A DNA stretch of 62,515 nucleotides, filler included, from Rhabdomonas costata (taxonomy: Eukaryota), in NCBI GenBank assembly GCA_019059605.1. It is 16 parts of 16 records of this genome, joined end to end, with 100 filler letters (N's around TTAATTAATTAA, not from the genome) between each part and the next. Parts side by side here need not be neighbours in the genome. Positions count along the whole stretch, not along the records: positions 19,744 to 23,552 come from JAHMHO010000509.1; 15 more parts are not named here. One strand, given 5' to 3'. The position numbers and the translations under genes were made by a program. The notes beneath the pieces are model-generated. The model was not told where the DNA came from and did not search any database. It saw nothing but the letters and a program-made list of their open reading frames with translations. Shown in pieces: positions 3,900 to 55,813 of this stretch; positions within the stretch are counted from its first letter, which is position 1; the number at the start of each line of letters is the position of its first letter.

Positions 3900-3999
3900 N
3901 NNNNNNNNNNNNNNNNNNNNNNNNNNNNNNNNNNNNNNNNNNNTTAATTAATTAANNNNNNNNNNNNNNNNNNNNNNNNNNNNNNNNNNNNNNNNNNNN
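3900..3999. other. Artificial contig spacer (first of 15)
   Basis: 44 N + TTAATTAATTAA (stops in all six frames) + 44 N. Identical 100-nt spacers start at 3900, 7879, 11804, 15719, 19644, 23553, 27459, 31364, 35259, 39162, 43058, 46962, 50851, 54741 and 58628. Contigs are 3787-3899 nt, roughly sorted by size. Confidence 0.99.
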
Positions 4000-7100: not shown

Positions 7101-8559
7101 GCAAACAAACAGTCAGTATGCTTTGGCAAGCCATCAGATCAGGAGCGCATGAAGCAGTTGTTTTCTGAACCGGCCCTCTGGGGTGCCAAGATCGTTCACG
7201 CGACTCTCAAAGACTGTGCCACCGGAGCGGAGAAGACTGAGTGTCAAGCAGCTGGACACACAAACAAAATGCATGCCCCTTCTCGAATTTCCGGGAGGTT
7301 TACCTGACCAGAAACAATTCGATAGACGTGGACGTCCTTCACTTCGTTCTCGTCCGGAAGATCCTCCACGCCTGCCATCAAATTGGGGAAAGAGCCAAGG
7401 AAGACAGAAAGCCCATTGAGAAAGGTTCGACGCAACTCCAAACTCCAAAAAATTTGCAGCTCTTCATTACATCGCAAAATCATAAAGCACTCGCTGGCAA
7501 AGAAATAAGGGCTGCTTTCCCGTGAATCAAGTTTAGAACATAGTGATCGGTGCTCGAGGTGGGAACATAAAAAACGCGGAGAAGGATTCGCCCACCCCCC
7601 TCACACACACCTGTCACATGCATCTTTGCCTGCGAAGAAAAAGAAATCAGAAAGGTGCTCCGAGAAACGCCAAACGGAAAGGATCAACATGACAATTTCT
7701 TTCAATGCCACGGAACATGACCTTCAATAGCGAAAAATCCAACGTGCTTGCACTCCCTATCTAAAAGCTCTAATTGGAAAACAGAAAGAGGAGCCGAAGC
7801 AAAATGACGGCAGGCGACGGCCGATACTGGTCGCAAACCCAAACCGTTGAGTAACCACACAACCAAACACACCCCACANNNNNNNNNNNNNNNNNNNNNN
7901 NNNNNNNNNNNNNNNNNNNNNNTTAATTAATTAANNNNNNNNNNNNNNNNNNNNNNNNNNNNNNNNNNNNNNNNNNNNGTGTTGGGTGTGGTTGGGTTGT
8001 GGGGGCATGGCGGTGGCTGAGGCAACGCACAATGTAATGTGAAGGGGCGGACTGGAGGAGAAGGTATGTGGCATTGGAGGAGGTGGTGCGGTGTACGTCA
8101 GTTCATCCTACGTACGCTCCCATCCAGACACACCACGGCGGGGAAATACGGGCACACCTCAACGGTGCAAAACACTGCCGCACCAATCGCTGCTCCAGCC
8201 GCAGCTCCTGAGAAAACCACCGCGGCAGACAGGTGTGCAGAAAGGAAACGAAAATCCGTGTATGTCTGTGTATGTCTGTGTGTGTTGTTGTTTCTTTGTT
8301 GTTCCCCTTGTTTTCTTCTTGGGAAGACAAGAGCAGTGCGTGCGTGCGTGCGTGCGTGCGTGTGTGTGTGTGTAGCTGGTGCGTGCCGGCGAGAGGAGTA
8401 CATAAACAATTGGCACGGATCCAGTCTTAAGTGGCTCCTAAGACTGAATCACCTCACAAGACCCGAAACGGCAACTTCTGAGAGCACCCCGCTGGGAAGT
8501 AAGGCACAGCGGAACACCATGGACGTCACGGTAAAACCCGTGCTGACTTGCTGACGAGC

Positions 8560-13421: not shown

Positions 13422-15718
13422 ATGGCTGGGGTGCTGCGGCGGGTGGTCTACCGCGCTGCCACGACAGGGCTGCAGTTCCTTGAGCGGCACGTCTGTGTCC
13501 CCGGGGACACCCCGACCCGGCGGCGGCAGAAGATCACTCTGGGGTGCATCCTGGGCTTGGGCTGGCTGACCCCTCTGGCGATGGGATTGCTGGCGTGGTG
13601 GGCCCAGGGCTTCGCTTACTCCGCGGCTGCCCTGCTCTCCGTGGTTTACTACCTCATCGCCGCCGCGGCGGGCCCGGTGCTGCTGCCCGTGTTCGTCCGC
13701 ACGAAATCCATGCGCGGGCTTCGCGCGGCGATCATGGTGCTGTGCTGGGGTCATATCCCGGTCGCCCTGCTGTCCTTGGGTGGACTGCAGTACAACTCCT
13801 ACGTGGGGCTGCAAATCGTGTTCACCTACGTGGTCATCGTCTTTTCATTTTTTGTTTTGTTTTCCTTTTTCACGCCAGGCTAAGTCTTTGCATGATCGGT
13901 TGGTGTCTCCCACCCTCTGGCGGTTGTTTGATTCCTTGCGTAATGCCCTTGACCAGCAGCTTTTTACTCTGGGGATCGGGGATCAGGATTGCCGTGAGGT
14001 TTCGAGTTATTTGAGGAGTTGAAGAACAGTAGCTTTGGAAAAGGCTTCTGACTTAATCGTTGAGTTTGGTGAGCAGGAGAGGAGATTCGGTGATCGGGTG
14101 GTTCTGCCGTGCTGCTTGGCTTTTTTTTTGTTTTTAGTTCTGCCTTTTCCTTCCATCCAATATGCATCCAGCATTGTGAGCATTGCTGTGACAACTTTGA
14201 TACATGCGTATTTGCTTTTTAACTATGGAGTGTTTCCCCGGAAGAGCACCACTGCGGTGCCCGCAGTCCTTTATTTTGAGATGTTCATAGGATGGGAAGT
14301 TGAATATCTTTTTGCGCTCTAGAGCTGGAACGACTGCGACGGAAGCAGTCCCCGTTCTTTATGCCTTTTTGTTAGCTGGGGCTGATTCTCTACGAGAGCT
14401 TCTCTGCGGCTGTGCTCTCCCTGGTGATGTCGTGTGCCCTTCTGGTGGTGTGGGCGATTGTGGAGGGGGAGCTGGGGCTGCCCCTGCCCTATGTCTACAA
14501 CCGCCGCACCCTTGTGGCCTTCCACGCCACGGAGTGCGTGACGATCTCCGGGGCCCTCCTCCTTGGGCTGTGGTACATGCTGCGGGCGATGCGGGAGGAG
14601 CTCGTGGAGCGCAGCCTGGGCGAGGCCCGCGCGGTGGCCATGGCGGAGGCCCGAGCCGCGTTCGTCGCCAGGATGTCCCACGAGATTCGCTCCCCCGTAT
14701 GTGTGAGAACGTCCACGTCCACGTTTACATTTGGATGTGTGTATTGAGTGCTGGAGATGCACTGACAGAAGGAGGACACCGTTTCCTACTCTCGCCACCC
14801 TCCACTCTCGTTGAAGTAAGTGGGCTCCCCCGTTTCATGCGTTATATTTCTTTTCTCTTTCCTCTTCTGGCATGCGAACATTGTCTCTCCAGACAAACAG
14901 GAGCACTTTCTTCCTTTTTTCCAGCTGACTGGGATCATCGGGCTGACTGAACTGCTGTCCCTGACCCCCTTGACGGGAGTACAGAGGCAATACAACGCCT
15001 CCATTGGGCATTGTGGTAAGGCCCTTCTTAACGTCGTCAACGATGTGTTGACCTTCGCGAAGCTGGAGGCCAGCAAGCTCAGCCTGGAGAGCCGGTGGTT
15101 TGACCTCCGGGAGTGCATCGAGGGCGCTCTGGCGGTGCTTCGGGGAGCGCTAAGCTCGCGGGGTGTGGAGATGGTGGTGGACATTCCGCGCTCCATCCCG
15201 CGGTCCGTGCTGGGGGACGACACAAGGCTCGCCCAAGTGCTGATCAAGTATGCACCACGATACGGGAGGAGGGTGGAAGAACTTGGCCGAGTCAGCTTGG
15301 GTGGGGTTGAAGCAGAGGCTTTTTGTTTGGAAAACAGCCGAAAAGGTTTAGGGTTTACGATTTTAGTTTGGTTTTCACACTCTTTCGTGCCGGTGGCAGC
15401 GAAGTGTGGTGCAACTGAATGCCTGGATTCCCCTCCTTATTTTTAATGGGGGATTTGAATTATGCATTGGAATGAGATTCTGCTTTCCCCAGAGTTCCGT
15501 TGGTTTTGCTGTTGCCAATGAAGGTTGAATTATCAGGAGGCCTTCTGAATGAACAGGAGAACTTCCTTAATTTTGGACTTATTTTATGGTAGCTCATCTT
15601 GCCCCTTGCCTCTCCTCTCCATAGCTTGCTGAACAACGCCAAAAAGTTCACCGCTGCCGGAGTCATCACCCTTCAGCTAGAGCTACGGGATAACCGCCTT
15701 GGGTTTCCCCCCAACACA
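13422..15718 (+). CDS. Membrane-bound sensor histidine kinase (TM region + HisKA + start of HATPase), 3'-truncated
   Basis: Exons 13422-13838, 14376-14696, 14925-15247 and 15625->15718 join in frame via GT-AG introns. H-box FVARMSHEIRSP|LTGIIG, N-box RLAQVLIN|LLNNAKKFT and several N-terminal TM helices. Confidence 0.92.
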
Positions 15719-16528: not shown

Positions 16529-18414
16529 ATGTCGGGCCTGCCAACATCCCCCACGGGTCCTCCAGGGTCTTCTGTGACAGCCGCGACGCGGGACGAGAAG
16601 ATTACCCTTAGCGATGACGCTTTTACCGAGGCATTTGTCTGCTACCTTTTTTCGTGAGGCTGGGTGATTCCGGGCACGTGGTGGTGGTGCTCCCGTCAAG
16701 ATGTCTCTATCCCCTGATCTATGTCTTGAGTGACTTTACTCCCTCTTCTTTTCGTCCGCCCTTGCCCCTTCTTTTCCTCTGCCCCACCCCCTCACTTTTG
16801 TCATTCCCGGTTCCCGGTTCTACTTTGAAAGACCTCATTGGGTGTTTCTGTCCGTATTCTGTGTCTCGGAAGCAACGCTGACCGCCGGATGCACGCACGC
16901 ATTGCACCCCACAGCCTTTGTTGTGTGCGGGTTTAGTCTGCTGAGGCCCTGATCCACCGGGACTTCTTCCCCGACCTTCCCAAGCTGAAGGCCCATCTGA
17001 TGCTGCTGGACGTCGTGGACGGGGGCACGGCACAGCAGGCTGCCGCCCTGGACGCCGTCAAAGCCCTGGCACAGGAGGAGCACCGCAAGGCTTCCATGGT
17101 CGAAGGTATGCGCGCGGAATCCCACACGAACGAAAAGGGACCTTCAAAGACAGTTGCAGACAACAGCAGAGGAGAAGAGTGCAGGTGAATACGGGAAAGT
17201 GCGCGGAGCGCAGAAACAATGCAATCGACTTTTGAGGACTGTCTGCCATGGAGCTTTTGCCACAGATCTTTTTTCGTGGAGGTTGCTTATCAGTGCCTCT
17301 TCTTCCCAATGGTCGACCAAAGCGAAAATTAGAAAGGACATCGTTTGAAGAAAAAAGCCAGCACCCTGCCCACCGCAGGACATTTTTCACCCGAAGTATT
17401 CCAGGCAGTACAAGAAAGTTGCAAGTGTATGCCATTCGGGGTTGCCGCAACACAGACCCTCGTGATCATGATTGGTCCCTTGACATGCTGACACTGCGGT
17501 CGCCATGGTTTGTTTCTTGATCAGGAATGAACCTGGATGAGTTTCTCGGAAAGTACACCAACGAGGACGCTGTCTCCTTTGCTCAGCTGCAGGAGAAGCA
17601 CCGCAGGCTGCACCGCAAGAAGTACGGGTGGGTGTTTGCCCCGGACGAGGCCTTCAAGAAGCGCCTTCTGCTCTCTGGGGGCGAGCAAGCTCTGCTGGTC
17701 GTTGCACTTGTTTAGTTGATGCGATGTTTCGATGACGGTTCATGCATGCACATGTTACATATGTTGTCCTCGGGGTTAAGCACCTGTCAGTAGGATTAGC
17801 TTTTGGGCTGGTGTAATTTGGGGTTGGTTCGATTAGTGTGTGTCCGTGTCTCTTGGTTCCAGGATCGATCCTGAACATATTGGATGTTGAACACATTGGC
17901 GACTGGTGGCCCCGACAGCGACAGCTGCTGTGAATGAAGGTGCATTACTAAATGACACACGTGTATCAGGGATGCCGCCCTGGTAAGGTCAGTGCGTAAA
18001 AGAGACGGCATGCATATGGCAGTGGTAGGGCACGTTCCCTGTGAGAAGAAAGTAATGGTGCGGTGGAGGACTGAGTGCTAAGTTGCGTAGAGTAATGATT
18101 AGAGACAGAGTCTGCGTGGAATACCACGTTATTTCAGACCCCAAGAAACGCAAGCTGTCAGGTTGTGAGGTTTTCCTTGGCCTTGCTCTGCTTTTTTCTT
18201 GGGTGGTGTGAATGCGGTCTTAGAAAAAAGAAACATGTCTCTCAATTCTCCTCTTCGCAGGAGTACCAGAAGGAGGAAGAGCGCAAGCGGGAGGAGCTGC
18301 AGGAGCTGCGCACCCTGATGCTTCCACCCCCGCCGCGGGGCCCCTCGGAGGAGGGAGGTAGCAGCAGCACCTCGGCGTACCAGGCCGCCCATCCCCGGCA
18401 GATCAATCACGCTG
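16529..18414 (+). CDS. ESS2: Splicing factor ESS-2/DGCR14 (ES2) homolog, partial
   Basis: Exons 16529-16630, 16937-17105, 17525-~17697 and 18261-~18414. ES2-type motifs LSDDAFTE|SAEALIHRDFFPDLPKL and LDEFLGKYTNEDAVSF...KYGW. Confidence 0.85.
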
Positions 18415-21298
18415 GTGGCACCACCTCACGAATCACCACCCCTTCCTCTCAACTACTCAACTACTATCTTGCACTTCTGTGGCAGTGCACCGTTTTGGAT
18501 CATCACATCCTTGACTTTGATTTGGGAGTTGGGGAAACGATTCACCGGTTCCTTCGGTCAAGCTAATTGACCTGGCATGGGATTGTGGAGCAGTTGGCGT
18601 GTCCTCGCCGGGATTCAGGTTTCGGTGCACACGAGATGCACTGAAGATGTGCCATCGACAAACTATTTGGTTTCGAAAAACCTGGAGCTCAAAAAGCAGC
18701 TAAATTACTCATCCTGGCTTCGTTGTCGGCACTGCGCACCTGAACATGCCTGCGTATTGATTTTGAGTTGAAAAAACTCATCCTTCAGGACACAGAAAAA
18801 AGTGAGCGAGGAAATACGGTCATTGGGGTAAATCGTGACTACAGTGTGTCTTATCCATCTCCCCATGTAAGGTGGTTAGGTAAGGTCCAGTTAGGTTAGG
18901 AGAAGGATGTGGTTGTGGGTTGGGGAATGGGATTACAGGCACCCACCTCTCTGCAATGGTGACGGTTGCCAAGGACAAGGACCTGAGCTCCTTCGCAGCT
19001 CGTCCGCTGGAGAAGTGTGCCCACACTAAGCACGACACAAGCCACCCACTCTTAGCATTTTCCATGTGTGACCTGAGTGGGAGGGTAACTATTGTCCCCC
19101 CTCCCCTTCTGGGGGGGACTTCCTAAGAAATTTTCAGAGCTTGACGATGCAGTGCTTGCAGCCGTTTTTTCAGTGGGATAAAGACATGCATTTCTTTAGT
19201 GGTTTTGGAGGGGCATCCTAATGAACCCTTTTTTCCGTTATCAAATCGGATGGTGGATTGCAATTACGGTACCAGCCACTAGTCGTAAGTTGGTCTGTGC
19301 CATTGGTTGTTTGTGCTACCTTTGACTTAGTTTTTGGCTCCCAACTCCACCGATTATTTCCCCCTCCGTTGCAGGACGGTGTGGGAAGAGATCACTTCAG
19401 ACCTGTCTCTGATCGCCCAGAAGAAGCTGGAGAAGGAGCAGGTTTGTCTGTGTGTTTAGCGGCTTCCAGTCGCACATGATTCAGAAGGGTCATTGGATAG
19501 AGTGATAGGGTGTACGAATTTTTCCTTTTGAAATTCTCTGAGGTGATTGCCAATCATCTGACCCCACACGAGCCTGCTTGGTCGATTGTCTTGGAAAAAA
19601 TGTGAGCGAGTGCAATGGGCATTATCCCGTTGACCACCAAACCNNNNNNNNNNNNNNNNNNNNNNNNNNNNNNNNNNNNNNNNNNNNTTAATTAATTAAN
19701 NNNNNNNNNNNNNNNNNNNNNNNNNNNNNNNNNNNNNNNNNNNCTCTCCAACTCTTCTGATTGCTCCTTTCTCCTGGTACGGTGAGATCTCCCTTTAGTA
19801 AAGCGTTCCGCGGGTTGCAGCAATGCCAACGCGATGGAGCCTCATAGAGCAAGCAGAAAGAAGTTTTTCATTCTTTGAAGCCTGTATAAAAATGCCGCTA
19901 ACGGTGACATGTTTTGCAGTAGAGTTTTTTTGTTGGTAGAATTAAAATTTTACCTTTTTTTAAACCGTTCTAGGGCAATCAAATTCAGCCAAAAACAGCG
20001 CTGGACCTTTCCAGCGTTGCGAAAGAGACTGTTGTCACTCAAGTTGAGGTTTAGCAGCGGTAATACCCGGCGTGCTTTCACACCGTCAGCAAATGGAATC
20101 GAGTCAAAACCTATCACTTATTCTCAGTGGTGTTCAGTGAAGCTTCTCCTCCGCCGCCGCCGAGAGAAGTGCCTGCAGTTCTGGGCAATGCCCTGCATGG
20201 TGTGCACTGCATGCTGGTGACCTCCGGGCTGAGCTCAGAGGAGGCGGTGACATTGCTGCTGCGACGCCTGCAAAGGAAGTGAGGCGGTTGGGCATGCATA
20301 CTTTGGGATGGGAGGGCTTCCTTCTTTCCACGTTGTTTTTCTCTACGCGATGTCTACTCCTTTTCGCTGGGATCGGAATGGGTTTCTCCGTCTTCATTGA
20401 ATCTATTTTTTTGTGAGAGTTTGCTTACGATGCTCGAGATGCAGGGACAGCGGCCACTGCCCTTTGCCTCGAGGTTTCGCCTGCTTCTGGAGCCAGCGAT
20501 TGAAGGGACTTAAATTTTGGCCACCTCCTCTCGCTTCACTGGATATCGCTGTTGTTAGCCGCCCCACAGGGCGTCTCGTAGAGCTCCTCTGAGACAGTGC
20601 CTCCAACAGTCCTTCAAACTCACCCGACTGTCTCAAGGGCGCCCACTTCACACGCTCTTCAAGCGTAAGCTCAGCTGTTCACCAGGGCCTCTCCTGTTTT
20701 CGGCTCTTGTGTTGTGCTCTTTGCGTGGCATGTTTTTTCTTCCATTTCCCTTCCACACCTCCAACACACCCCCTGCCCCCATTCTTTTTGTTCTTTTGAT
20801 AGAGAGGGAGGCAGGCATGAGGCGGAAGCCTTTCAGGGAGAGTTTCATTTATCGTGCCCGTTTCCGCACAGTTCCCAGCGCTCTTGTGATTACAAGAGCT
20901 CAAGCTCAAATGGGCTTGGGCTTAATTTTTGATCTTGGGTTGGCAATGCTAGAAGGAGCATCGTTTTGGCCCGTTTTATTTCCTGTTTTTGTTTTTAGAA
21001 TCACACATACGCAGAAAATAAACAGCTAAAAGAAATACTAAATTTGTCCCTGATGCACCCCAAGAGGGCCGATTCGTCATTGCGGTGTTTGGCAGAAGCG
21101 GGGGAAGGTCCTCGAAAGTTGAGGTTGTTTGTTCTTGCTCTGCTGCTCTACTTGTCTCACACAGCTATTTTGCTCGCAAAAGGCAACCTTTCTTTCCAAG
21201 GCACCTTGATTTTTTGGGGCACCGTCCCCTTTCTCTGTAACCCTTCCCCTCATCTACCCCCATCCTTTCCTTTCCACTCTCACGACGCCTGCACTTAC

Positions 21299-22917
21299 AT
21301 GGAAACTGGAAGCAGGGGCTCCGTTTGGTGCCTTTGGACCGACGCGCAACAGTGGGGCCATGGAACAAAGCCGCTGCGGATGCTGGAGACCCACGTTCAA
21401 GGTCTGAGGCTCTCCGCTGCTGTGCATGCCCATTGCCCGATTATTCTCCCGCTACAGACCAGCCTGCATTTCTTCCGCGATGGGTTTTGCCCGCCTTCGA
21501 AGGACTTAGACACCGAGACCTCCTACAAGGTGACCAACTGTTCGGAGGCGGTGGTGGTCCGCATGTGGGGAGGCAGTGTGGATGCCATGGTGAGGGGCCT
21601 GTTCCCGGGGGGCCCAGATGCCGTTCATGGGGTGACGGCACACCGCAAAGGCGCCAGCAGCTTCACGGTGAAGATCTGGTCCAAGCATCTCCGGAATCCC
21701 AGCTATGCTGCGGCTATTCCGACGTTCCTGGCGGCAGTGCTGGGTGACCAGGGACGGAGGATCGCACAGAACCCATTCATGGCGTCCACTGGGAGTTTTG
21801 GGCTATTTGAGGAGATGGCCCCAAGTGGAGAGGAACCCCTTTGTTCCTCTATGCCGCCCCTGGTGATGCCCTCCGCTGAGCCTGCGGAGGTTGCCCTTCA
21901 GCAGCCTTCTGAGAAGGTTTGCAAAAGAAGAACTTGCAACTGTTTGTTTTTCAACGCAGCGTGGTTTGGCCCTGCGTAAGTCATCCCCCAACTCAGCATA
22001 TGCCTTTTACAGTGATGCTTTCGTGTAGTTTTCGTGGTAACGCTTGTTGCGGATGCGGATGCCAAAACTTAAGGTGTCCCCCATGGTATCCATTGACGCG
22101 AACCGGACCAGTTGGAGATGTGATGTTCTAGGGCCTGAAATTGAGCACCCTACCTACCTGCGCTGAGAGTTGGGTTCTGGTGGACAAGGTCACCATTCTG
22201 AGTTGGGTTGCACAGCTCAAGTCGCCTGGGTTTTCCCGGCCATTCATTCCCTCCGTCCTTTTTGCATAATGTCTTTCCAACAGCTTTGTCCCACAGCACC
22301 TCTCCACCTCTCTCGCCTTCTAGATTGCTTCCGCACTCTGCGGCCAGGAGGCTCTCTGTGCAACTCTGCGAGCCAAAAACAGCAGCGCCCCGCTGTGGAG
22401 CTTTTGGACGGACATCACGGAGGATGGGGCACTGCTGGTGGCTACTGGCGGCGGGTGCCGGAAGCTGGCAACCCTTCCCTTTGGGTCTCCCACCTTCTCG
22501 GAGACTATGCTCACTCTGTGTCCCGCTGTGCTCCCGCCGAAGGGCAGCGTTCATATCCTTCGCGAGGGGGTAAGTGTGGCAGACTCTGCGACTCACTCCA
22601 CGGATGGCTCGGCGATCAGGATGACGTTTGTGTGGGCGCGCCTTGCGGCTGTGCTGGTGGAGGGTCTGATCCCGGGCTGGCCGGAGGGTGTGGAAGGGGT
22701 TACCCTGACACACACCAGGGCAGATCTTTTCACTGTGAAGATTTACGCTTGCCCTTCCGGGAAAAAGGTCTTCCCCGATCTAATCCGGAAGGTTCTGGGT
22801 GCGATCTTCAGTCGCCGAGGGCTGTGGACGGCCTTGGCGAGGTTCTTGGGACCTGGTGGCAGCGTTGGGCCCCTGCACCTGGGCCCCCAAACCCTATCAG
22901 AGGCCGGGCCCTCGCAG
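21299..22917 (+). CDS. Protein with two tandem divergent eIF4E-like domains
   Basis: An exon ending at 21916 joins exon 22324-22917 in frame (GT-AG). Each exon carries WxxW...L-P-x3-S-x-H-x2-R-(D/E)-G...W...V-x-G-V...F-T-V-K-I-(W/Y), which aligns by eye with the eIF4E core. Start position uncertain. Confidence 0.62.
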
Positions 22918-23652
22918 GTTCCTGCTCGTCAGAACGTCGTCGTCGCCTCGTTTCTTTCCGCTGAGTTGTCATATGCCGCAGTTCAGGGTTTTGCTTCTGC
23001 TGACTAGGAATGGATGGAGGTGCTGTAGGGAGGCCCCTCCCGGTGTCTTGGGCTTGGATTGGGACTCTGACCGAGTAGGGGCTTGGAGTCATTCCCAAGC
23101 TTATGTGCGTGGGCTACGTGTCGTTGTGAGCGCGTTTGATCGTTCCTTCCCTCTCTACCAGGGTGCCCAAGGGTTTCTGGACCGCGGGGATCTTGGAGGC
23201 ATATCAGGCGTGTTGGCCAAAGTATAGGTGCACCTTCTTGTCGTAGTCTCTTGGTGAGCACATGGCCCCCTCATTACATGGTGCCCGCCAGGAATGCAGT
23301 GCCATCAGTGAAATCTCTGACACTCTGGGTGGAAATAGACGTTGGAGAGAAGGATCTTGGAAATGGTTCAGTCCAAAGCGGCCGGTTTCGCCTCAAGCAT
23401 CGAATTCAAAGGTGCGGGAAAAACGAACACACGGGGACAAAGTAGGGGCATGGCAATGGGGAGAGCTATGGAAATTGGTAACAACCCCGTCCACGAGTCC
23501 AGCAGACTCACTCCAACGCGCCAAAGGGTAACCCCTGTCCCCACACCAAAACNNNNNNNNNNNNNNNNNNNNNNNNNNNNNNNNNNNNNNNNNNNNTTAA
23601 TTAATTAANNNNNNNNNNNNNNNNNNNNNNNNNNNNNNNNNNNNNNNNNNNN

Positions 23653-25427
23653 TGGTTGGCTCGCCAGAGCACTACGCTGTCCGGGCTGAGGTAGATTCGG
23701 GTGCCCAGCTGTCCAATAATGTCGTTGACATCCGCCACCCCGTCCGCCTCCTGCTCTGGCGAGCCCACCACCAGCCCGCGGACGGCCCGAGACTCCAGCG
23801 CCTCGGCCAGAGTGGGGACATCCGTGCGACCACCAGGCTCACTGCACACAAGGAGCGGAGGGGGCACAGGGTCGGGAGTGTAAGCATTACGCTCTTTGCC
23901 CTGTATTTTTGTTATCTTCACTGCTCAAGCCGGGGGGGGGGAGCTTTCCTCGCCTTTTGCGCGGTGAGGTGACTGCCTTTCAACAAAGCTTGGGTTGCCT
24001 TGGCTTTCTGTTGACTCAGGATTTGCTTTCGCTGCTGCTGCTGCTGCTGCATTGAGATGCTCTGCCAAATAAGTGCCGCAAACCCTGCGAGGCTGCCCTT
24101 GCCAATGGCTGCAGTTACTGGCCAGGAAGAGGTTGAAAAACTGCACTCCCTTGAGAGCAGCTTCTCGGGCTTGTGATTCCATTAATCTCCGCAGTTCGCT
24201 CCTGCTCAACAGCATCCCTCTCCGCATGCACCATCACGAAGTAACTGTCTCAGGCTGCGGGGAGCAGTTGCCATGTGCAGTTTTTTTGAAGTTTCCTTCA
24301 GGTTCGGTTCCAATTTCTACCCTTCAGCCACACCGATCCGTCAAGCGGCTGAACAGGAACAGCAGGTCAGCCTCAGGGCAGGCGGATCCCACCAGCTTGG
24401 ACAGCGCCTTCACGAACGGGCCCTCGGCGACTTCCCCGGGCCCGACGGGCAGGCCACGGGCTTCAAGGGCGGCCCTGATGTACCCTGAGTAAGATCCCGA
24501 GAACCCATCCAATATTACCTGTGTGTCAAGGCATGATAGATGTGTAGAGATGAAAAGCCAGAAAAGGTACTTGTATGGGCATGCAAGGTGCAAAAGGAGG
24601 GGTAAAAAATAATTAGGTTACTGGCGCTTCTAACAAATGCACCCATATCCAAGTTCGATCATTTTTGTTGGCCTTCAAGACAAAAGCAAAATCTTAAATA
24701 CAGTCAGGATGTGTGCGCGCGTCGGAATTGCACTTTCCGAGCGAAAGAAAATGGTCAAACGTTCCTGCCAGCGGTAGAACCCCAGCGTTGCGCAGCCCGC
24801 GCTGCACATTCTGGATCACCCGCTCTGTTTCGCTGTCCTCCACGCGAAGCGCGTACCTCAGCTTCACCTGCACAGTAAAACAGCAAGTGAGGGGAATGCG
24901 ATACACGACAGCGAGTCTGTCTAAGCGGAAACTTCACAGAAAATAGGCAATGATACCAAGAAGTCAGCGAGGTTAAGCACTCCCTTTCCGTCAGCATCAT
25001 AGTAGCGGAACAGCGCCTCGAAGTCCTCTTCGGAGAGGGACACATCAGCTCCAGATCTCTTCATCAACTGAAAAATTGTCAATAGAGTCTCATGAAGAGC
25101 ACCTACAAGTACCAAATCTTCAAAGAAGGATTCTCCAAAACCGACCTGGGTGAAAGCCGCAAGAGAAAGGCTGGGTTGGCCCTTCTCCAGTATCTGGAAC
25201 TTGTCTTGGACCAGGGCAAGGGACTCCGTGTCGCGGACCTTCCTGGTAAGATGCTTCTGCAGATGGGTGTGGATCCTGTCTATCCTTTCCCGCATCACCC
25301 AGGGCGCAGGAGCTCGGCGCTGAGCATCAAACTGGGATGGAGCGACTCCAACGTCAATCTTGGAGTACGCGGGCTGGTATTGGGTAACTAAGCCTCTCAG
25401 CTGATCTTGAACTGTGATGCGAGACAT
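23653..25427 (-). CDS. EF-hand-containing protein, 3'-truncated
   Basis: Exons 25427-25146, 25067-24957, 24867-24781, 24518-24334 and 23841->23653 join in frame via GT-AG introns. EF-hand EEDFEALFRYYDADGKGVLNLADFL. Confidence 0.8.
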
Positions 25428-26199
25428 CCCAGTTGAGAAAAGGCGAGTAGAGTGTGGAGATGGGAGAGGAAGAGAGCCGAAAGAGCAGGTGCAAGGTGGA
25501 GCAAACTGTTTGAAGCAAAACAATTAGGAGCGAACAATTTGCTCAAAAACAGACATGCGTCGAACAACCAGTACACCGTAAGCAAGTGTCAGGGTAAAGT
25601 GCGGAATCTTTCCCAACCTGTGATAATGTGTCACCCTGAGGAAGGTTCAGTACAAAATATGAATGAAAGGATCAGGGTCAAAGTGGATCCATTTTTTCAT
25701 CATCCGTCAGCCATGAAAGATAATGAAAGGGGACGGCCCCTTCTTTAGGAAATGGCCATGTATCTTTCGATGATTCATAAGTGTTCTTCACGAAAAAAAA
25801 ATCCGGAGTTGATCCGATCTATTATTAATGCCAAAAGAAATAATGCCTTTACGGCAAGAACAAATGTTGAAGTATTGCCCACGATAGTCGCATTTTGGGT
25901 TCCCAGTTGGAAGGAAGTTAGGCATGGTCCTTGCCTTCGACAGAAAACGGGAACGGGCTGTGTTTAAGAAGAGACAGACTCCAACCGGATCCAGATGACT
26001 TAGCAGCGGTTCAAGCTGTGAACTCTCGCGGAAAAACGATTGCTCAATGAAGAGTTAAAAACTCCTCCTGCTTCCTACCGCCCTATATACCACTGCCTGG
26101 GTATCTGGGTATCTTTGAAAACTCGAGATCGTCATTTTCGACCAGCTTTGCTGAGTGACCGTTTCCAATTTGAAAGAATTATCATTCTCCTGAAGTGTA

Positions 26200-27812: not shown

Positions 27813-30800
27813 TTAGAGCCGGGTGGAAACGCCCGCGAAGGCAAAGTAGACCAGGACGAAAGTGAGGAACCCAAGCACGATAAATCCCGCGAGGAACCGG
27901 TCGACAAGCACCCACAGAGGGGGCCACGGCTTCGTCACGGGCACCAAGTTGGCCGTGGAGCTGATCGTCACTGTTACCGCATCGCTGGGCTTGAGCGCCC
28001 TGAAAAGGCAGAACAGGTGCCGATGAAATGCGCTTCTGATTTTGAGCTATTGTGGGTCATGAATTATCGTCCAGTGCAAAAAAATAATGGTTTGGGAGGG
28101 TCGGCCTCCCCTCCTCCCATGCTGTGCATTGGAAACCCGTCGTTGAGAGCAACTAGCAACTGAAAGAATACAATGAATTCGACGGAAAAGGAAATACAAA
28201 ATCCTCAACCTCAAAACTCTCAGTGACCCGATTGCTTAAGCCACCCACGGTTTCGTTAGCACTTGCCCCGGGGCAATTCAATACAGCCCGGGTATGGGGC
28301 GCTTGGGGGTCAGCATCATTTCCAAGTGTTTGCGTTTGAGTCCCACTGTGTGAATGTCCCGGTTTCCCCGGCGATATTTCGCTGTTCGTCCCAGCAGTGC
28401 TCCCAGGATTGTCCATAACAAAGCTATTCACGAGAAAAAGCGATGTGTGAGAAAATAAACCAATTATCTTTCGCCATCTCACACATTTTTATAAACTCCT
28501 ATTCTTCGTTCCTCTTTCGGCAGGCAGCCAAGGTCTGAATCCAAACCAAAATTAACGTGCACTTGAACTGAGACTTGCTTGCGAAGAGGGAGCTCACAAA
28601 CTGGGACACCAGCAGCGATCAGATGCTGCGCTTGGGCAGACGCTGATGTTCGCTTATTCTGGTGTGGAACTGGAATCTACGCCAGTCACTTCGGAGCTGG
28701 AAGCCGATTCGATTGTCGATTGTCGGTTGTCGGTTGTCGGGTTTTGTTCGTCAGCTGGCTATACCAATATAAGATCTGGCAGAGATGTTCAGCCGGACGT
28801 CACCATCACGGGCGTCCCAGAAATAACATCCGCAAAGGGAAACCTTGCTCCCGTTCCCTGAATATGGGGAGGCACCTAAACGGCATCACCGATACGGCAG
28901 ACCTCTGGCCTGATAATGTCCATGACAACCAAAAAGTGTGAATGTCGAAAAGAACAGTCTTGCTAAAAAAATTCCGTCGGATGTGATTGGGTTTAGAGAA
29001 AGAGCAAAAAGTCGTCTTTAGTAAACCACGTCAGCATGGTTGTTTCTTGTGCATTGCAAGGTCCTAAATTCATAAATTCAGGCCACCGGATTAAGCGAAG
29101 CTTAGTGCGCCCTCACACACAGCTACATTCATTCATATTAACACGCACATCACATCCGAAATTTGCTTCACCACAGGCATATCATGAAAACCAAACCTCA
29201 GAGAGACGAGCGGAACCGCATCATGGAACCCAAGACAAAGATGTTTGTGGTGGCACTGGGACACGACACCGGCCGCGGGTTAGGTGCTGCTCAGAAGAGC
29301 AGATCATAAGAAGCCCAAGCATGAACGTGCGCCAGATCACCAGAAGACAAGGGGCACTATCTTTGGGCTTATTGTGATGTGATAGACCACTACTTGTGTC
29401 GGCAGCTTGCCCAAATGAAAACCTGTGCACACACCCTACCTGACACGGCCTGAACACAAAACATACTGTGGGGTCTTTGGCTTGGCGTCGTGGAACTTCT
29501 TCAGCATGTGCACAACGACGAAGGACGGGATGGTGCTGAAGACAAAGACCAAGCAGATCAGGTTGTACATAGTGAGGAAGTTCTCGTAGGGCGCATCGGG
29601 AAGGCCGCTGGTGAATGCGAAGTTGAGTGCGACCAGGGACAGCATGCTGGTGACGCTCAGGCCCACCCGCGCGGGGGGAACCGTGACGTCGACGAACAGG
29701 GAGCACAGCCCGCAGAAGGTGATCAGCGACAGCGGCAGGAACACCAGGACCACGTAGTGGGCTTCCCCAGACAAGACCCACAAATCACAGTCAAAGGGGC
29801 GAACACACTTTGCCCCGGCGGATTGGGCATAATAATCATTGAATCGAATGGGAAAGGCGGAAAAGAAGGGGGTGGGAGGCGGGAAAGGAACTTCCCGCCC
29901 ATGGCAGCCCGGATGTTCCCCACTGGGTGAATACCAGAATGAAGGCGCAGGCATTTAGACATGACCAGCTACCACTTAAGAAGACAGCCACTTCAGACAT
30001 CTCGAGAAAGGTGGAAGGCGCGGGAGACTGAATGGATACGTGGTGATGTATCTCAATTGGTGGGGACTCTGGTGCATACGTAATTGTGGGATAATACGGA
30101 TATCACATGCGACCGAAGGACTGGATTTGTAAACCATCTAGATCACGGCGAAAAGATCCACGTCTATCAGAAGAAAACGTCTATAACACCCATGTATTTC
30201 ACGTACTTTCATCCCCTCACCCCAAAACGCACTAAACCAGGGCAGCCCGGATACCACTTGCACCAGGCGGAATCCCGCAACCACAGCTCTATCGTGGCCG
30301 GTGGCCTGGGAAGGGGAGCCTTTGCCCCCGACATCGCATTCAGCTAAGCCTCAGCACATTGCATTTTCCAAATAAAATATACCCCTTTGGGCAATGGGGC
30401 AATGGGACCGACCTGCAAAGAGCAGGAGGATGGGGAGGGGGTGTGTATATGCTTGCAGCGCTTGAGCTGTCCCTGCTAACCAATAGTATGGAGCTCACTG
30501 AGGGTAAAAGTAAGCGTACCGCCATCCCGCTTTAGATCAACCGTGACAACCATCGCGTTGAAGGCCTGCGGGCCGAAGGCTTGGGAGGAATTGCTTGGGT
30601 TGTACTGGACATGCGAGTAGTTGACCCGGGGCTGGAAGCTATAGCTCGTCGCAAACGTCGAAAGGTAGCCCGGCGCGGGCGCCTGAAGGAAGGACTTCAT
30701 AACGACCTTGGCTCCCATTCCCGCTTCATACACCACAATCGGAATGGTGCAGCTTTGCGCATCAAAGGGGTACTGCCTGAAGTTCATCGAGCAGGTTACA

Positions 30801-30924
30801 GTTCCCGTGATCCTCCGGTAGAGCACACTTGTCGGCAGGTACTGGTTTCCGTTGGTCATCAGAACGAACATCTCGTTCACCCCAGCAGACGTCTCATCGC
30901 TCTGCAGTGCCCACAAGCAGCGCC
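27813..30924 (-). CDS. Pentameric ligand-gated ion channel subunit (Cys-loop receptor), 5'-incomplete
   Basis: Exon 30924-30520 has C-x13-C (CSMNFRQYPFDAQSC) and pre-M1 DLKRDG. Exon 29761-29467 has M1-M3 including PPARVGLSVTSML and LP..PY. Last exon 27999-27813 has M4 (LVDRFLAGFIVLGFLTFVLVYF) and the stop. M3-M4 loop exons not fully resolved. Confidence 0.9.
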
Positions 30925-31930
30925 CTACATACATATAGTGCGCCCTACCGGAGGATATAAGTTGGGTAATGAAATTCCCATGTATCACTCTCCTCTTCGA
31001 ACATTTCCGGGCACTTCTAGTGGGAAATATGGAGAAAGGTGTGAAACAGAAGGAGGGATCCTTTACCGTCACAAATGAAAATCAAGGCCTGCTGAATCCG
31101 CTGCTGAATCTTTCTATTGGGAACCGAAACGGTTCATTTTTGTCCTGAAAAGAGGGTCCGAAAATCTCGTGAGCACTTGCAACATTGCATTCAGAAACCG
31201 AGACCCAAAACAGAAAATCTGTGATCTGTGTGGGGTAAGCCAAGACAGCCGCAGAACAGCACCGATGAAAATGCACTTGCAACATGGGAACGGCTTTGGA
31301 TGCGAAGTTGCTGCACTCGCAACTTGCAAGCAGTCAAAAAAGAAGATGGCGCAACAACACCACNNNNNNNNNNNNNNNNNNNNNNNNNNNNNNNNNNNNN
31401 NNNNNNNTTAATTAATTAANNNNNNNNNNNNNNNNNNNNNNNNNNNNNNNNNNNNNNNNNNNNACCCATTACACAACTTGAAGTGCGAGAGGGAGAAGGA
31501 ACTGTATGTGATCGTGTGTGCGGGTCAGGTAGTTTTCCCACCCTCCACCATCTATGCATCTTTTCACATTTATTGATTGTTGATCCGGACTTTTTCAAGT
31601 CGACAGGGGTTGCCATGGAAGTGGATTAGAGGTTGTGGGTTAGAGGTTAGGAATAATAAATTTTGATTGAAACTCCCGGGGTGACCTGCGTCATCGCCCC
31701 CGACAACTGAACTCGAGGTTCAAGTTGGATCCTGTTGAACTTGGTGGCTTTTTTGTCGTCCTCATTTGGGCATTGAACTTCGCCGCATTTTCTGGGACAG
31801 GAGGGGCCATTCTTGGGCCTTTGCTGATCTTCCTTCCGCGTCTGAACTTTCAACTCCGCACGGGCTGCGCTGGCACCGATTTTTCCTCTTGTGCCTATTG
31901 CGTTGCATTGCGATGTTATTGCACCCGCAG

Positions 31931-47061: not shown

Positions 47062-47709
47062 GTGTTTTGTTATGTTGTATATCTTGTTTTATTTGTATAT
47101 ATGTCGTTATATCATTATGAAATATTTTTTCTTTTCATCTTCCTTTTCTTTTTCTTTTTTTTCTAGATTTTGTTCAGTTACTACTTTTGATACTTTTTCT
47201 GACAATTGACTACTTTTATTTTTTATTTCTTCATCCATTTTATTAATTTTGTCTATTTTTTGTTCTTTTATATTTTCCATCTCTTTTATTTGTTTATGTA
47301 TATCATCAAAATTAATATCATTGTAATCAATTGCAAAATCTAATTTTGGTGGAATAATACATTGTTTTTTTGATTTTTGTATATTATTACTTTTCGTATT
47401 TTTAAATTCAATAATTTTTTGAACAAGTTGATTTATACAATATATATTCGGTATTACATATTCATGATGTACTCCATATAATATATTTTTATTTTCGTCA
47501 TATCGTATTACATCATATAATAAATTATCACAAATACAATTTATATATAAATGATTTGTTGATAATGATGGTGAAAGTTTTTTAACATATAATATTTGTA
47601 AAAATAAACGGTGTATAACTACATTTAAATCTATGAGATATTCAGATATATTAAATTCATTTTGTATCATTTCATTTATTAAAACATAATAAGTTGATGA
47701 TGTATTCAT
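47062..47709 (-). CDS. Hypothetical viral protein with K/E-rich coiled coil; apparent frameshift near 47125
   Basis: 200-aa ORF 47709-47107. Adding one A in the A6 run extends it as KIFHNDITTYIQIKQDIQHNKT, open to the contig end. Confidence 0.7.
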
Positions 47710-47751
47710 TGTTGTATTAAATTATATTTTTTTCTTTAAATAGTATAAATT

Positions 47752-48099
47752 ATGTTACATTACATTGTATTAGGACTATTTGTTATATTAATATTTATTT
47801 TATATATTGATAACAGTATGATCTTGTTAAATACGAAAAAAATACAAGAAACAGAAAATATTTATATACTTAATGAAACAACAAATATAATCAAAAAACA
47901 AAAAATACCAAATATTACAGATATTTTAATGAAACAAAGAATACCAAACTCAAAAGATAAATGTTTAAAATTAAAAATATTTAAAGCTCCAAAATCAGAC
48001 GATCAAAAATACTATGAATATGTAAATACAGATGATATGAACACGGATGAAATAGAAGAACTATGTAAAAGAGAAAATGGGATACTAATAAAAAATTGA
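47752..48099 (+). CDS. Small viral protein with N-terminal transmembrane anchor
   Basis: 115-aa ORF beginning MLHYIVLGLFVILIFILYI. Confidence 0.75.
   Translation: MLHYIVLGLFVILIFILYIDNSMILLNTKKIQETENIYILNETTNIIKKQKIPNITDILMKQRIPNSKDKCLKLKIFKAPKSDDQKYYEYVNTDDMNTDEIEELCKRENGILIKN
48092..48099 (+). promoter_or_regulatory. Mimiviridae early promoter motif AAAATTGA
   Basis: Exact octamer 86 nt upstream of the ATG at 48178. It overlaps the stop of the preceding ORF. Confidence 0.7.
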
Positions 48100-48177
48100 A
48101 AAATAAAATGTATGTATATAAATACATATAAAACAAAAAATCTATTAACAAATATAGTTAAAACAAAATAAATAAAA

Positions 48178-49271
48178 ATGACGTCTATTTTTGGTGAATT
48201 GAATGAGATCCTGAAGAAGGAGACATCGATTTTAAGTACAAGTGATATCGAACAAATTATTAATAATTTATTTAAATTTACAAATAAAGTAAATATAGAT
48301 GAAAATTTTGATTTTGATAAAATTGATTTGAATACATTAAAAATACCGGATTATGATTTTGTGTATTACAATTTATTTGTAAAATTCATACTTACAACAC
48401 AACAAATTATATCACTTGATAATACACGAGATAAAATTATAACATCTATTCGTGAAACACAAAAATCACTACACAAAAAAATAGGAAGTCTAAAAGAAGA
48501 TACAAAAGTTGGATCTTCTGAACATGATATAAATAAAGAAGATGATTCACGAGATAAAAAAGGTAAACGTGTTGTTGTTGGAAAAAATAAAAAGTAAATG
48601 AAGAAGAAAGTGAAGATCAAACAGCAAAACAATCTATGGATCAAATGATTAGTGAAAATGACAATATTTACATTAAACGAAATGATGACAATGATGAAGA
48701 ACATGAAAAGAACAAACATAAAGTGGATATTATATCAAGTGAAATTGATCAAAATGATATGTTTTGTTCAGATGTAAGTGATTCTGAAAAAGGAAAAGAA
48801 CGTGACATGTTTGAAGATTGTGATGAACATATGATAACAGTAACGGAAGAACAAACAGTTAGTGAAAAACAAAAAGTAAAGAAAACGACAACAAAACCAA
48901 GAAAAACAAAAACAGATAGTGCAACCGAAAAGAAATCAAGAAAAAAGTCAGATACAACTGAAAGTGAAACAATAACAAATACAACACAACAAAAAGAAAA
49001 TGATTCTGAAGAAATAAAAAAACCGACAAGACGTACAAAAACAACTGAAAAAACATCAGAAGAAAATGTAGAGAAAAAACCAACAAGACGAACAAAGAAA
49101 ACAACAGAAGAATCATCAGAGAAAAAACCAACAAGACGAACAAAGAAAACAACAGAAGAATCATCTGAAAAAAAACCAAGAACGAAAAAAACAGTTGAAA
49201 AAGTAGAAGAATCAATTAAAGATATTCAAATTGAAGATTCTGACAATTCTGACAATGATGATATTGAATAA
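48178..49271 (+). CDS. Acidic/basic low-complexity viral protein, split by a 1-nt indel at about 48589-48593
   Basis: ORF 48178-48597 ends GKNKK*. The -1 frame is open from 48591 (KVNEEESEDQTAKQS) into ORF 48636-49271. Confidence 0.7.
49071..49166 (+). repeat. 48-bp coding tandem repeat (EKKPTRRTKKTTEESS x2, with degenerate flanking copies)
   Basis: Units start at 49071 and 49119, with partial copies at about 49017 and 49167. Confidence 0.92.
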
Positions 49272-49305
49272 TTAAATAATTTTAATTAAAATTAAAATTA
49301 TTTAA
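49272..49305 (+). terminator. Perfect AT-rich palindrome directly after a stop codon (mimivirus-type polyadenylation hairpin)
   Basis: TTAAATAATTTTAATT (49272-49287), AA, AATTAAAATTATTTAA (49290-49305). It begins at the base immediately after the TAA. Confidence 0.78.
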
Positions 49306-49308
49306 ATA

Positions 49309-49316
49309 AAAATTGA
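49309..49316 (+). promoter_or_regulatory. Mimiviridae early promoter motif AAAATTGA
   Basis: Exact octamer 63 nt upstream of the ligase ATG at 49372. Confidence 0.78.
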
Positions 49317-49371
49317 ATTTTTAAATTATTAAACATATATTAAAAAACAAACTTTTAAATTGAAGTTAAAA

Positions 49372-50850
49372 ATGACAAGTGTTTTGAATATTTTAAATGA
49401 TGAAAATTCAATTATTAAAAAAGCTTCAAATATGTCTATTGAAAATTTGATTGATCTAATTAAATATTTAAATTATCATTATTATGAAAAAGAACCATTG
49501 GTTACAGATGAAATATATGACATGTTAATCAATATATTAAAAGATAAAGCACCTGAGATCGACGTTCAACAAAGTATCATTCAAGATAATAAAAAAGATA
49601 AATATGACAAATTAAATTATTATATTTCAAGTATGAATAAAATCAAACCAGATACAAATGAATTAAAAAAATGGACATTGCAATATCATGGACCTTACGT
49701 TATTAGTAATAAATTAGACGGTGTTGGTGGTGTTTTAATTTCAAAAAATAATGTAATTACACTATATAAAGGTCGAATTGCTGGTTTTTGTTATATGGCA
49801 AAGAATATATCACATCTAGTTCCGTATATAATTGGAAAGATAAAATTACCTGATCTTGTTGTTCGTGGCGAATTTATAATAAATAGAACAAATTTTGAAA
49901 AAATAAAACATATTTTTAAAACACCAAGAAGTGCTGTAACATCCTTAATAAATTCAAAAGAAGTTGATGTAAATGTTGCGATATTAACAGAATTTATTAC
50001 ATATAATATATTGGAACCATCTATGACACAAACAAATCAATTAAATAAATTAGAAAGTACAAAATTAAAAGTTGTAAGTTATATAGTAACAACAAAAATT
50101 TCAAATGAAATATTAAGTGAACATTTACTTCTACAAAGACAAAAAAATGATTATGATATAGACGGTATTATTGTATCCGATAGTTCAAAAATATATAAAA
50201 TAGAAGAAGAAAATCCTAAATATGCATTTGCTTTTAAGATGGTATTATCTGATCAAATTGCGGAGACAATTGTTAAAGATGTATTTTGGAATATATCAAA
50301 AGATAATTATTTGATTCCAAGAATATATTTTGAAGCTGTTGTATTAGGAAATACAAATATACAATATGCAACAGGTAATAATGCACGATTTATTCTAGAT
50401 AATAATATAGGTATTGGTTCCATTATACAAATTATAAAAAGTGGCGATATAATACCAAAAGTACATAAAATTATCAAAGCTACAACAGCAAAATTACCAT
50501 CAATACCTTATAAATGGACAACAACAAATATTCATATTGTATGTACAAATGAATCAGACGATTTAAAAGTTCAAAAACTTGTACATTTTTTTAAAACAAT
50601 GAAAATAAAAAATATAAGTGATGAAACAATTAGAAAATTAGTTCCATATGGTATTACATCTATACATAAATTTTTAAAAATAGATAGAAGTTTACTTACT
50701 GAAATAGAAGGAATTGGTGACACAAATATAAATAAGATATACACGAATACAATAACAGCATTACAAACAACAACATTATCAACATTAATGGCATCATCTG
50801 GAATTTTTGGAAGGAACTTTGGACCTCTAAAATTAGATTTGATTGTAAAA
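49372..50850 (+). CDS. ligA: NAD+-dependent DNA ligase, giant-virus type, 3'-truncated
   Basis: Domain Ia YYEKEPLVTDEIYD, motif I KLDG, VRGEF, DIDGIIV, PKYAFAFK, OB fold ending KSGDIIPKV and HhH IEGIG. No tetracysteine Zn finger after the OB fold. Confidence 0.95.
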
Positions 50851-55300: not shown

Positions 55301-55813
55301 TGCAGTAAAGCAGGATGTGCTCACATCTCGGCATGTATGAGATGGCAGATGGCATCTGTTTGTCTGCACGCCAGTTTTACATGGACAACAGCTTGAGTGC
55401 CCGAAAACCTTTATTTTTCCATCGGACTAACTTCAGTTTCTTCCAGCAAAGGACCGGAGTATCCAGAGGAAACAGAAGCAAGAGGGATGGCTTCAGAGAA
55501 TCATGAGACAGGATTCATGAATCATGGGTGGAAGGACCTCCAGCTCAATGCGATGTAGCGCAGAGAGAGACCCAGATGGTTTCATCTGAGACGAATGAGG
55601 CGAGTGGCCCACATTTTGTGTCGCAGCTACCTCGGTCCTGTAGTGCCGGGGAACGCTGCAATCCGGAAACCGGTTTAAGCTCCTGCATCACCCACAGTCC
55701 ATTTGAAGACATGTGCTTGCTCAGCTCCTCTCATCCTGCGGTAACATGATTTTAGCCCGTTCTTCATTATGTTTTGTTTGTGTTGACGGGAAGATTTCTC
55801 GCAGCCTGTTCTG

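Follow-up and report, generated by a model that had tools for sequence, protein, structure and literature searches.

From our analysis of a window of 62,515 nucleotides (nt) of Rhabdomonas costata DNA (assembly GCA_019059605.1, spacers included), we describe a predicted two-exon gene whose product would carry, in tandem, two diverged domains of the cap-binding eIF4E family. The window, by which we mean the whole stretch analyzed, consists of 16 separate contig pieces of 3787-3899 nt, which are ordered roughly by falling length and joined by spacers (3900-3999, 7879-7978 ... 58628-58727) that place a stop in all six frames. The gene lies wholly within the piece at 19744-23552 (piece 6; 3809 nt, from JAHMHO010000509.1, with a guanine-cytosine (GC) content of 0.545), which has the artificial linker N44-TTAATTAATTAA-N44 at each end. 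Because the pieces are separate contigs, gene order across the spacers is meaningless, and the genes of other pieces were used only as a codon-usage training set and as intron examples. The features of the locus are as follows.

21299..21916, plus strand: predicted exon 1, an open frame of ATG and 205 further codons that covers repeat 1 and the start of the linker
21323..21748, plus strand: repeat 1, a predicted eIF4E-fold domain (residues 9-150 of the exon 1 product)
21749..21916, plus strand: first part of the acidic inter-domain linker, which has no family-profile match, an isoelectric point (pI) of 4.26 and a coding-like score of +0.212 per codon
21917..22323, plus strand: putative conventional GT-AG intron of 407 nt, recognized by its sequence and by a negative codon score in all frames
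22324..23004, plus strand: predicted exon 2, an open frame of 227 codons, with the end of the linker, repeat 2 and the C-terminal tail
22390..22851, plus strand: repeat 2, a more degenerate predicted eIF4E-fold domain (residues 23-176 of the exon 2 product)
23005..23007, plus strand: TAG stop codon, at which the coding signal ends

An earlier note on this DNA had placed a single gene at 21299..22917, with two repeats spliced in frame. All the peptide strings that it quoted are present in the frames it gave, and the two repeats can indeed be joined in frame, the donor AAG|GTTTGC at 21917 and the acceptor, a pyrimidine-rich tract ending in CTTCTAG| at 22323, being of phase 0 on both sides. The start of that gene, the ATG at 21299, also stands, but its end does not, as 22917 marks a CAG|GT inside exon 2 and the stop is the TAG at 23005-23007. 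Neither exon 1 (206 codons) nor exon 2 (227 codons) contains an internal stop, and the coding frame changes by 2 across the intron, as a length of 407 nt demands; we infer that exon 1 is spliced to exon 2 in frame. A second possible in-frame donor, GAG|GT, occurs at 21890. Each exon carries one domain of about 150 amino acids (aa), and the linker extends about 22 codons into exon 2. Since exon 2 has no in-frame ATG ahead of its domain, the first one lying inside the domain after the WSFWTD strand, this exon would be unable to encode a complete domain alone. The predicted spliced product is about 433 residues long and comprises the two domains, a linker of about 75 residues and a tail of about 50 residues. 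The protein may also have a longer N-terminus from an in-frame ATG at 21053 (21053-21298), which would lengthen it by 82 residues, including a hydrophobic stretch of about 20 residues. The codon usage of this extension is not coding-like (-0.09 per codon), and between 21124 and 21244 the frame of the ATG at 21053 is the least negative of the three.

We then estimated coding potential with a codon table built from nine Pfam-supported open reading frames (ORFs) of the same window (2036 codons), which themselves score 0.09-0.35 per codon. By codon-usage log-likelihood, exon 1 scores +0.164 and exon 2 +0.160 bits per codon, both within the training range, and the score is negative in the other two sense frames, in all antisense frames, in the intron, in the open stretch upstream (20999-21298) and in the downstream flank. 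In a sliding scan, the positive signal begins near 21300, stops at the donor, resumes at 22324 and ends at the stop codon, staying positive to about 22980 and falling after the stop at 23005-23007. The GC content at third codon positions (GC3) is 0.69 in exon 1, 0.67 in exon 2 and 0.49 in the intron. The conventional form of the intron is found again in a Pfam-anchored Es2 intron in another piece (CAG|GTGAAT...TCAG|G), and none of the antisense ORFs within the gene has a Pfam family. Going by the frames, the junction and the codon statistics, the best reading of the locus is that of a real two-exon protein-coding gene.

The products of the two exons align at 47/174 identities (27%) with a BLASTP E of 3e-14, and tblastn of each product across the entire window recovers just the other copy (E ~1e-11), the next matches having E 0.035 or worse; the repeat is therefore far beyond chance and is present in exactly two copies in the window. 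A search for DNA-level repeats in 20500-23550 yielded only short chance-level pairs, so that the duplication is detectable only in the protein, and the disappearance of the DNA-level repeat indicates that the duplication is old. Both frames are intact although the repeats are only 27% identical, which we count as long-term constraint. Three features, C-P...L-P, G-L-F/I-P-G-x-P and F-T-V-K-I, are common to both repeats and absent from the relatives described below, and these shared signatures suggest the internal duplication of a copy that had already diverged. A maximum-likelihood tree neither supports a grouping of the two repeats as a clade nor rejects it (p-AU 0.385). The two repeat domains are basic (pI 8.8 and 9.0), and both the linker (pI 4.3) and the C-terminal tail are acidic.

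To place the repeats, an exhaustive HMMER search of 1.84 billion representatives was made with a profile of the two repeats alone, and it returned 10 matches at E<=0.001. In six of these, a single full-length stretch of some 150 positions is matched (E 9.3e-15 to 3.8e-5), and each of the six exceeds the Pfam IF4E cut-off of 28.7 bits, with scores of 44.9-70.3. The remaining four, long repetitive PKD/REJ, CBM_14 chitin-binding and CHU_C proteins matched in 5-13 short stretches, were counted as false. The set of relatives used hereafter has seven members, namely P0003-P0006, P0009, P0011 and, from a further search, P0013. Among them, P0004 is RCo050222, P0006 is RCo034283 and P0013 is RCo034279, the prefix RCo being used for proteins of the euglenid R. 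costata in the part of PMC8219788 available. In hhalign comparisons with a profile of the seven relatives, from which the window was excluded, repeat 1 is matched at 99.2% (E 3.4e-19) and repeat 2 at 97.4% (E 1e-11). A hidden Markov model of the same seven gives repeat 1 93.5 bits and repeat 2 41.6 bits, where the best of 1000 shuffles of each reaches 4.9 and 6.6, and tblastn of the relatives against the window matches repeat 1 with 6/7 and repeat 2 with 5/7 of them and nothing else. In the ESM Atlas, the best cluster for repeat 1 is an IF4E cluster at 0.76, which we take as a lead only, and repeat 2 has no usable match. By transitive and profile evidence, both domains are diverged eIF4E homologues, though they stay under the Pfam threshold.

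The predicted structures agree with this placement. AlphaFold2 models were built with alignments of relatives, and that of repeat 1 has a mean pLDDT of 82.2 and a pTM of 0.79. Its best Foldseek match among solved structures is eIF4E 6gkj_C (E 4.7e-9, TM 0.74, root-mean-square deviation (rmsd) 2.9 over 149 columns), and with VIA, a Foldseek-independent aligner, ranks 1-10 all belong to the eIF4E family (Z 9.8-16.4, followed by 7.2), the best match having Z 16.4 and rmsd 3.0 over 144 residues. In the model of the exon 2 product, the core blocks have a pLDDT of 66-87, with values below 50 at residues 1-9, 14-16 and 168-227 and in the loop 87-101. Its best Foldseek match is 4EHP 5nvk_C (E 3.8e-5), and its VIA ranks 1-10 are again all of the eIF4E family (Z 8.8-13.1, followed by 4.9), with Z 13.1 and rmsd 3.3 over 144 residues for the best. 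All Foldseek matches listed, for repeat 1 as for repeat 2, are eIF4E or 4EHP, and Leishmania IF4E-1 and Trypanosoma cruzi EIF4E5 and EIF4E6 stand within the VIA top ten for both models. The models thus predict for both repeats the cupped-hand alpha/beta fold, a curved antiparallel sheet with three helices. Profile searches and structure predictions had both been set beforehand as tests of the eIF4E fold that the earlier note had proposed for each repeat, and the two agree on it. At rank 11 in both VIA lists, just under the eIF4E family, stands 1ztp, a human Hs.433573 product (Z 7.2 and 4.9), which we take to be BLES03, described as eIF4E-like. If that identity is right, 1ztp would be another cap-free relative of the fold.

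The eIF4E family is marked by eight conserved aromatic positions, W43, W46, W56, W73, W102, W112/113, W130 and W166, of which W56 and W102 stack on the cap, W166 contacts its methyl group and W73, in the VEDFW motif, docks eIF4G, while E103 hydrogen-bonds the cap (PMC5750579, cited here and below from the part available). We mapped these positions by a MAFFT alignment with the relatives and a HMMER alignment of the relatives' profile to 4EHP, with the following result.

W43, W46 and W130: kept in repeat 1; kept in repeat 2
W166: Trp in repeat 1 (VKIW); Tyr in repeat 2 (VKIY)
W113: Tyr in repeat 1; Ile in repeat 2
W102: Ser in repeat 1 (PPSKD); Asp in repeat 2 (VADS)
E103: Lys in repeat 1; Ser in repeat 2
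W73: Ser in repeat 1; Ser in repeat 2
W56, aligned position: Thr in repeat 1, preceded by a Trp at a distance of 4 residues; loop entirely without aromatic residues in repeat 2

The replacement of W102/E103, which had been proposed from the sequence, is borne out by this alignment through the relatives to 4EHP, with S/K in repeat 1 and D/S in repeat 2 at positions of which the first is Tyr in the relatives. The proposed loss of the VEDFW eIF4G motif is likewise seen in the Ser at W73 of both repeats, but it is not special to them. The five closest of the seven relatives have Leu at W73, P0011 has Asp and P0009 alone keeps the Trp, and because 6/7 single-domain relatives are also without Trp there, this loss predates the tandem protein. 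At least 6/7 relatives agree in 51 columns, of which 27 are conserved in repeat 1, 24 in repeat 2 and 16 in both. Of the P-x-Y-x-D...N-R-x-G-G-H-F-K-L stretch, which is equivalent to the W102-W113 loop, repeat 1 keeps only 3/11 and repeat 2 1/11. Scaffold residues are thus kept while the W102-W113 loop is lost, which is indicative of a selective loss of ligand and partner sites.

We then compared the repeats with their relatives and with known systems. The maximum-likelihood tree places both repeats with P0003-P0006 and P0013, separated from P0009 and P0011 at 100/99 support. These five relatives make up a euglenid group of eIF4Es in which W102 is Tyr, W73 is Leu, the aligned W56 is never aromatic and the start W-x-F-W-T-D-x-W-K is invariant. 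Closest by sequence are the euglenid single-domain eIF4E homologues RCo034283, RCo034279, RCo050222, P0003 and P0005, which are 31-36% identical to repeat 1 and 24-30% identical to repeat 2 and which share with the repeats the W-x-F-W-T-D start, the G-x-F-P-G...G-V-T segment, the S/T-V-K-V/I-W strand and the absence of Trp at W73. They differ from the repeats in having one domain, in passing Pfam IF4E and in keeping P-x-Y-E-D and N-R-x-G-G-H-F (an aromatic residue and Glu at W102/E103), which both repeats have lost. The tandem form was found in none of the seven relatives (0/7 have a second match to the repeat profile), and there is a single matched stretch in all six true matches of the large search.

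Among trypanosomatid proteins, EIF4E5 and EIF4E6 are euglenozoan eIF4Es of small size and strong divergence that carry Tyr or Phe in the place of W102, the former having Tyr like the relatives of the repeats (PMC5750579). The T. cruzi structures of EIF4E5 (6o7y) and EIF4E6 (9q78), which by their titles are crystals with cap-4 and with an EIF4G5 peptide, respectively, match repeat 1 with VIA Z of 14.3 and 13.4 and repeat 2 with 11.5 and 11.4. Unlike the repeats, both are single-domain proteins that keep aromatic residues at W56 and W102 as well as the basic phosphate-binding residues (PMC5750579). When the family profile is compared by sequence with solved structures, the class II protein 4EHP/eIF4E2 comes out best (2jgb, E 7.9e-14), and it is also a top fold match of both models; however, it keeps PMWED and binds m7GTP (title of 2jgb), whereas the repeats carry S-K-D and D-S-A at that place. 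For a use of the fold away from the cap, SHLD3 offers a comparison, as the beta-sheet face of its C-terminal eIF4E-like domain binds the HEAT repeats of RIF1 (PMC10398656, in the part available). SHLD3 differs in being an animal DNA-repair protein with a single such domain that is recognized by structure only, it is likened to the repeats by description and not by sequence, and no SHLD3 structure is among the VIA matches listed for either repeat. A protist eIF4E domain within a larger chain is known from dinoflagellate eIF4E-3b, in which the partner is a 2OG-Fe(II) oxygenase and not a second eIF4E domain (bioRxiv 10.1101/2024.02.20.581179, in the part available, where no loss of its cap site is mentioned). 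Excavates have divergent eIF4E architectures, including N-terminal extensions and members without a recognizable eIF4E domain, and two Euglena gracilis proteins are orthologous to kinetoplastid eIF4E1 (both from the part of PMC5862402 available). Our literature search for proteins with tandem, double or pseudo-eIF4E domains found no such protein described, and eIF4E is not mentioned in PMC7052976.

On balance, we lean, with somewhat better than even confidence, towards a real gene for a non-cap-binding pseudo-eIF4E adaptor with two eIF4E-fold domains. Both domains would descend from a euglenid-type eIF4E branch with Tyr for W102 and would have evolved fast, retaining the residues that build the cupped-hand fold and losing, in both copies, the aromatic sandwich W56/W102, the cap-contacting E103 and the W73 that docks eIF4G/4E-BP. 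In the presumed expressed product, an acidic, probably disordered linker would join the two domains, with a tail after repeat 2. Owing to the loss of W56/W102, E103 and W73, a canonical hold on an m7G or trimethyl-G cap and canonical docking of eIF4G are most likely impossible, and the two former cap-binding surfaces would be reused as protein- or RNA-binding surfaces in mRNA metabolism.

Several observations weigh against this view. Repeat 1 matches Pfam PF01652 IF4E with 25.3 bits (E 1.4e-5, profile positions 5-148/158), below the cut-off of 28.7, repeat 2 alone has no Pfam match, and no eIF4E match was obtained among PDB sequences with either repeat alone or with the two-repeat profile. A word-indexed search of a collection of 5.8 billion proteins found no close homologue of exon 1, at near or longer lengths, and the nearest relative in the exhaustive search has about 35% identity. 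Scans of metagenome contigs with the two-repeat alignment and four close relatives gave no confirmed locus, and no orthologue or matching protein of the tandem gene was found in the protein collections and metagenome scans. The end branches of the two repeats in the tree (1.66 and 2.83 vs a median of 0.5) would fit relaxed constraint too. The exon 2 product is modelled with no more than moderate confidence (mean pLDDT 60.1), and the predicted fold may partly be inherited from the true eIF4E-family proteins in the AlphaFold2 input alignments. Repeat 1 may still bind some ligand through residues that it retains, namely W166, basic residues nearby and a Trp in the loop between strands 1 and 2, and the adaptor role, though we regard it as the most likely one, is modelled by analogy only on the binding of RIF1 by SHLD3 (PMC10398656).

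These retained residues of repeat 1, of which the basic ones precede the VKIW strand, together with its Tyr at W113, would also suit a protein that is still a cap or nucleotide reader, with one or two rebuilt pockets that bind a modified 5' end such as the spliced-leader trimethyl-G (TMG) cap, possibly in a bivalent or cooperative manner. The basic character of both domains is in keeping with such a reader, class III eIF4E reads the cap in a novel mode (title of 4b6v) with W56 replaced by C or Y (PMC5750579), and Euglena mRNAs are stated to get a TMG cap from the spliced leader (PMC3388326). Yet every trypanosomatid homologue reviewed in the available part of PMC5750579 retains aromatic residues at W56 and W102, whereas W102 is here Ser or Asp and E103 Lys or Ser, repeat 2 is without an aromatic residue in the whole strand 1-2 loop, and the W102-W113 loop, depleted of family-conserved residues in both repeats as counted above, falls below a pLDDT of 50 in repeat 2; we consider this explanation unlikely. 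Conceivably, the two rebuilt pockets could form a new 5'-end or messenger ribonucleoprotein (mRNP) reader that recognizes a non-m7G ligand, such as a hypermethylated spliced-leader cap with the first nucleotides, or a pair of partner proteins, to which we assign still less probability.

The very long branches, the loss of all ligand and partner sites, the failure to find an orthologue and the absence of an identical or close protein from a collection that contains euglenid transcriptome proteins would all be expected of a decaying or never-expressed duplicate, in which an old internal duplication of an eIF4E gene has lost its function. Such a relic is, however, difficult to reconcile with frames of 206 and 227 codons that are still open at 27% identity between the copies, with an intron that retains canonical, phase-matched sites, with codon usage and GC3 that are those of coding exons and fall exactly at the exon borders, or with the selective retention of fold-building residues next to the loss of one loop, and we regard it as improbable, to much the same degree as a surviving cap reader. 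The locus could instead hold two adjacent genes or give alternative products, each a single-domain degenerate eIF4E, considering that tandem gene duplicates are common and that euglenid mRNAs are trans-spliced, which would in principle allow the AG at 22323 to accept a spliced leader. It speaks against separate products that the frame of exon 2 does not open before 22324, that a product of this exon alone would be without strand 1, that no stop precedes the donor in exon 1, which can be joined to exon 2 in frame, and that coding signal extends through both exons to the splice sites; the two-gene arrangement has, in our estimate, only a slim chance of being right.

Other parts of the window were surveyed as well. 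Of the 97 ORFs of 55 aa or more at 15.4-24.9 kb on both strands, 93 were searched with Pfam together, the two exon ORFs and a HisKA ORF being scanned separately and the antisense ORF at 14789-15436 being left out, and these 93 ORFs gave only two Es2 exons in another piece and two sub-threshold chance matches. Rfam and tRNA scans of the window gave nothing. The Es2 exons, at 16937-17185 and 17521-17712 (plus strand, piece 5), belong to a homologue of the nuclear protein Es2 (PF09751, E 1.8e-4 and 4.1e-10) and have a GT-AG intron between them. Other pieces carry a HisKA histidine-kinase segment (14820-15446, plus strand), an EF-hand ORF (24921-25523), exons of a Cys-loop ligand-gated channel (29436-31081, minus strand), an open frame of 526 aa without a Pfam family (50953-52530, minus strand) and an ankyrin-repeat ORF followed by a protein-kinase ORF (55787-57672, plus strand). 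The piece at 47062-50850 has a GC content of 0.227, against 0.48-0.55 in the other 15 pieces, and probably comes from another organism, a virus or an organelle in the same assembly. It holds a Lys/Glu/Thr-rich repetitive ORF (48591-49271) and an ORF cut by the spacer (49333-50850) with the adenylation and OB domains of a NAD-dependent DNA ligase, for which a scan of viral contigs found no close relatives. As the pieces are separate contigs, we rejected both the idea that this AT-rich block is a viral insertion and the use of neighbouring genes as genomic context.

eIF4E is regarded as a protein of one domain whose defining feature is its cap-binding tryptophans. A natural chain that carries two eIF4E folds, in which the cap and eIF4G sites are gone while the frame stays open and fold-competent over a long divergence, would be a clear pseudo-factor, that is, a ligand-dead paralogue that has been reused. 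Were the two-pocket reader true instead, it would be a bivalent regulator of trans-spliced euglenid mRNAs with no counterpart in the known eIF4E classes. The gene sits in the Euglenozoa, where eIF4E paralogues have diversified most and where mRNA control is largely post-transcriptional, and its predicted product would be a concrete protein with which to ask what the eIF4E fold does besides binding the cap.

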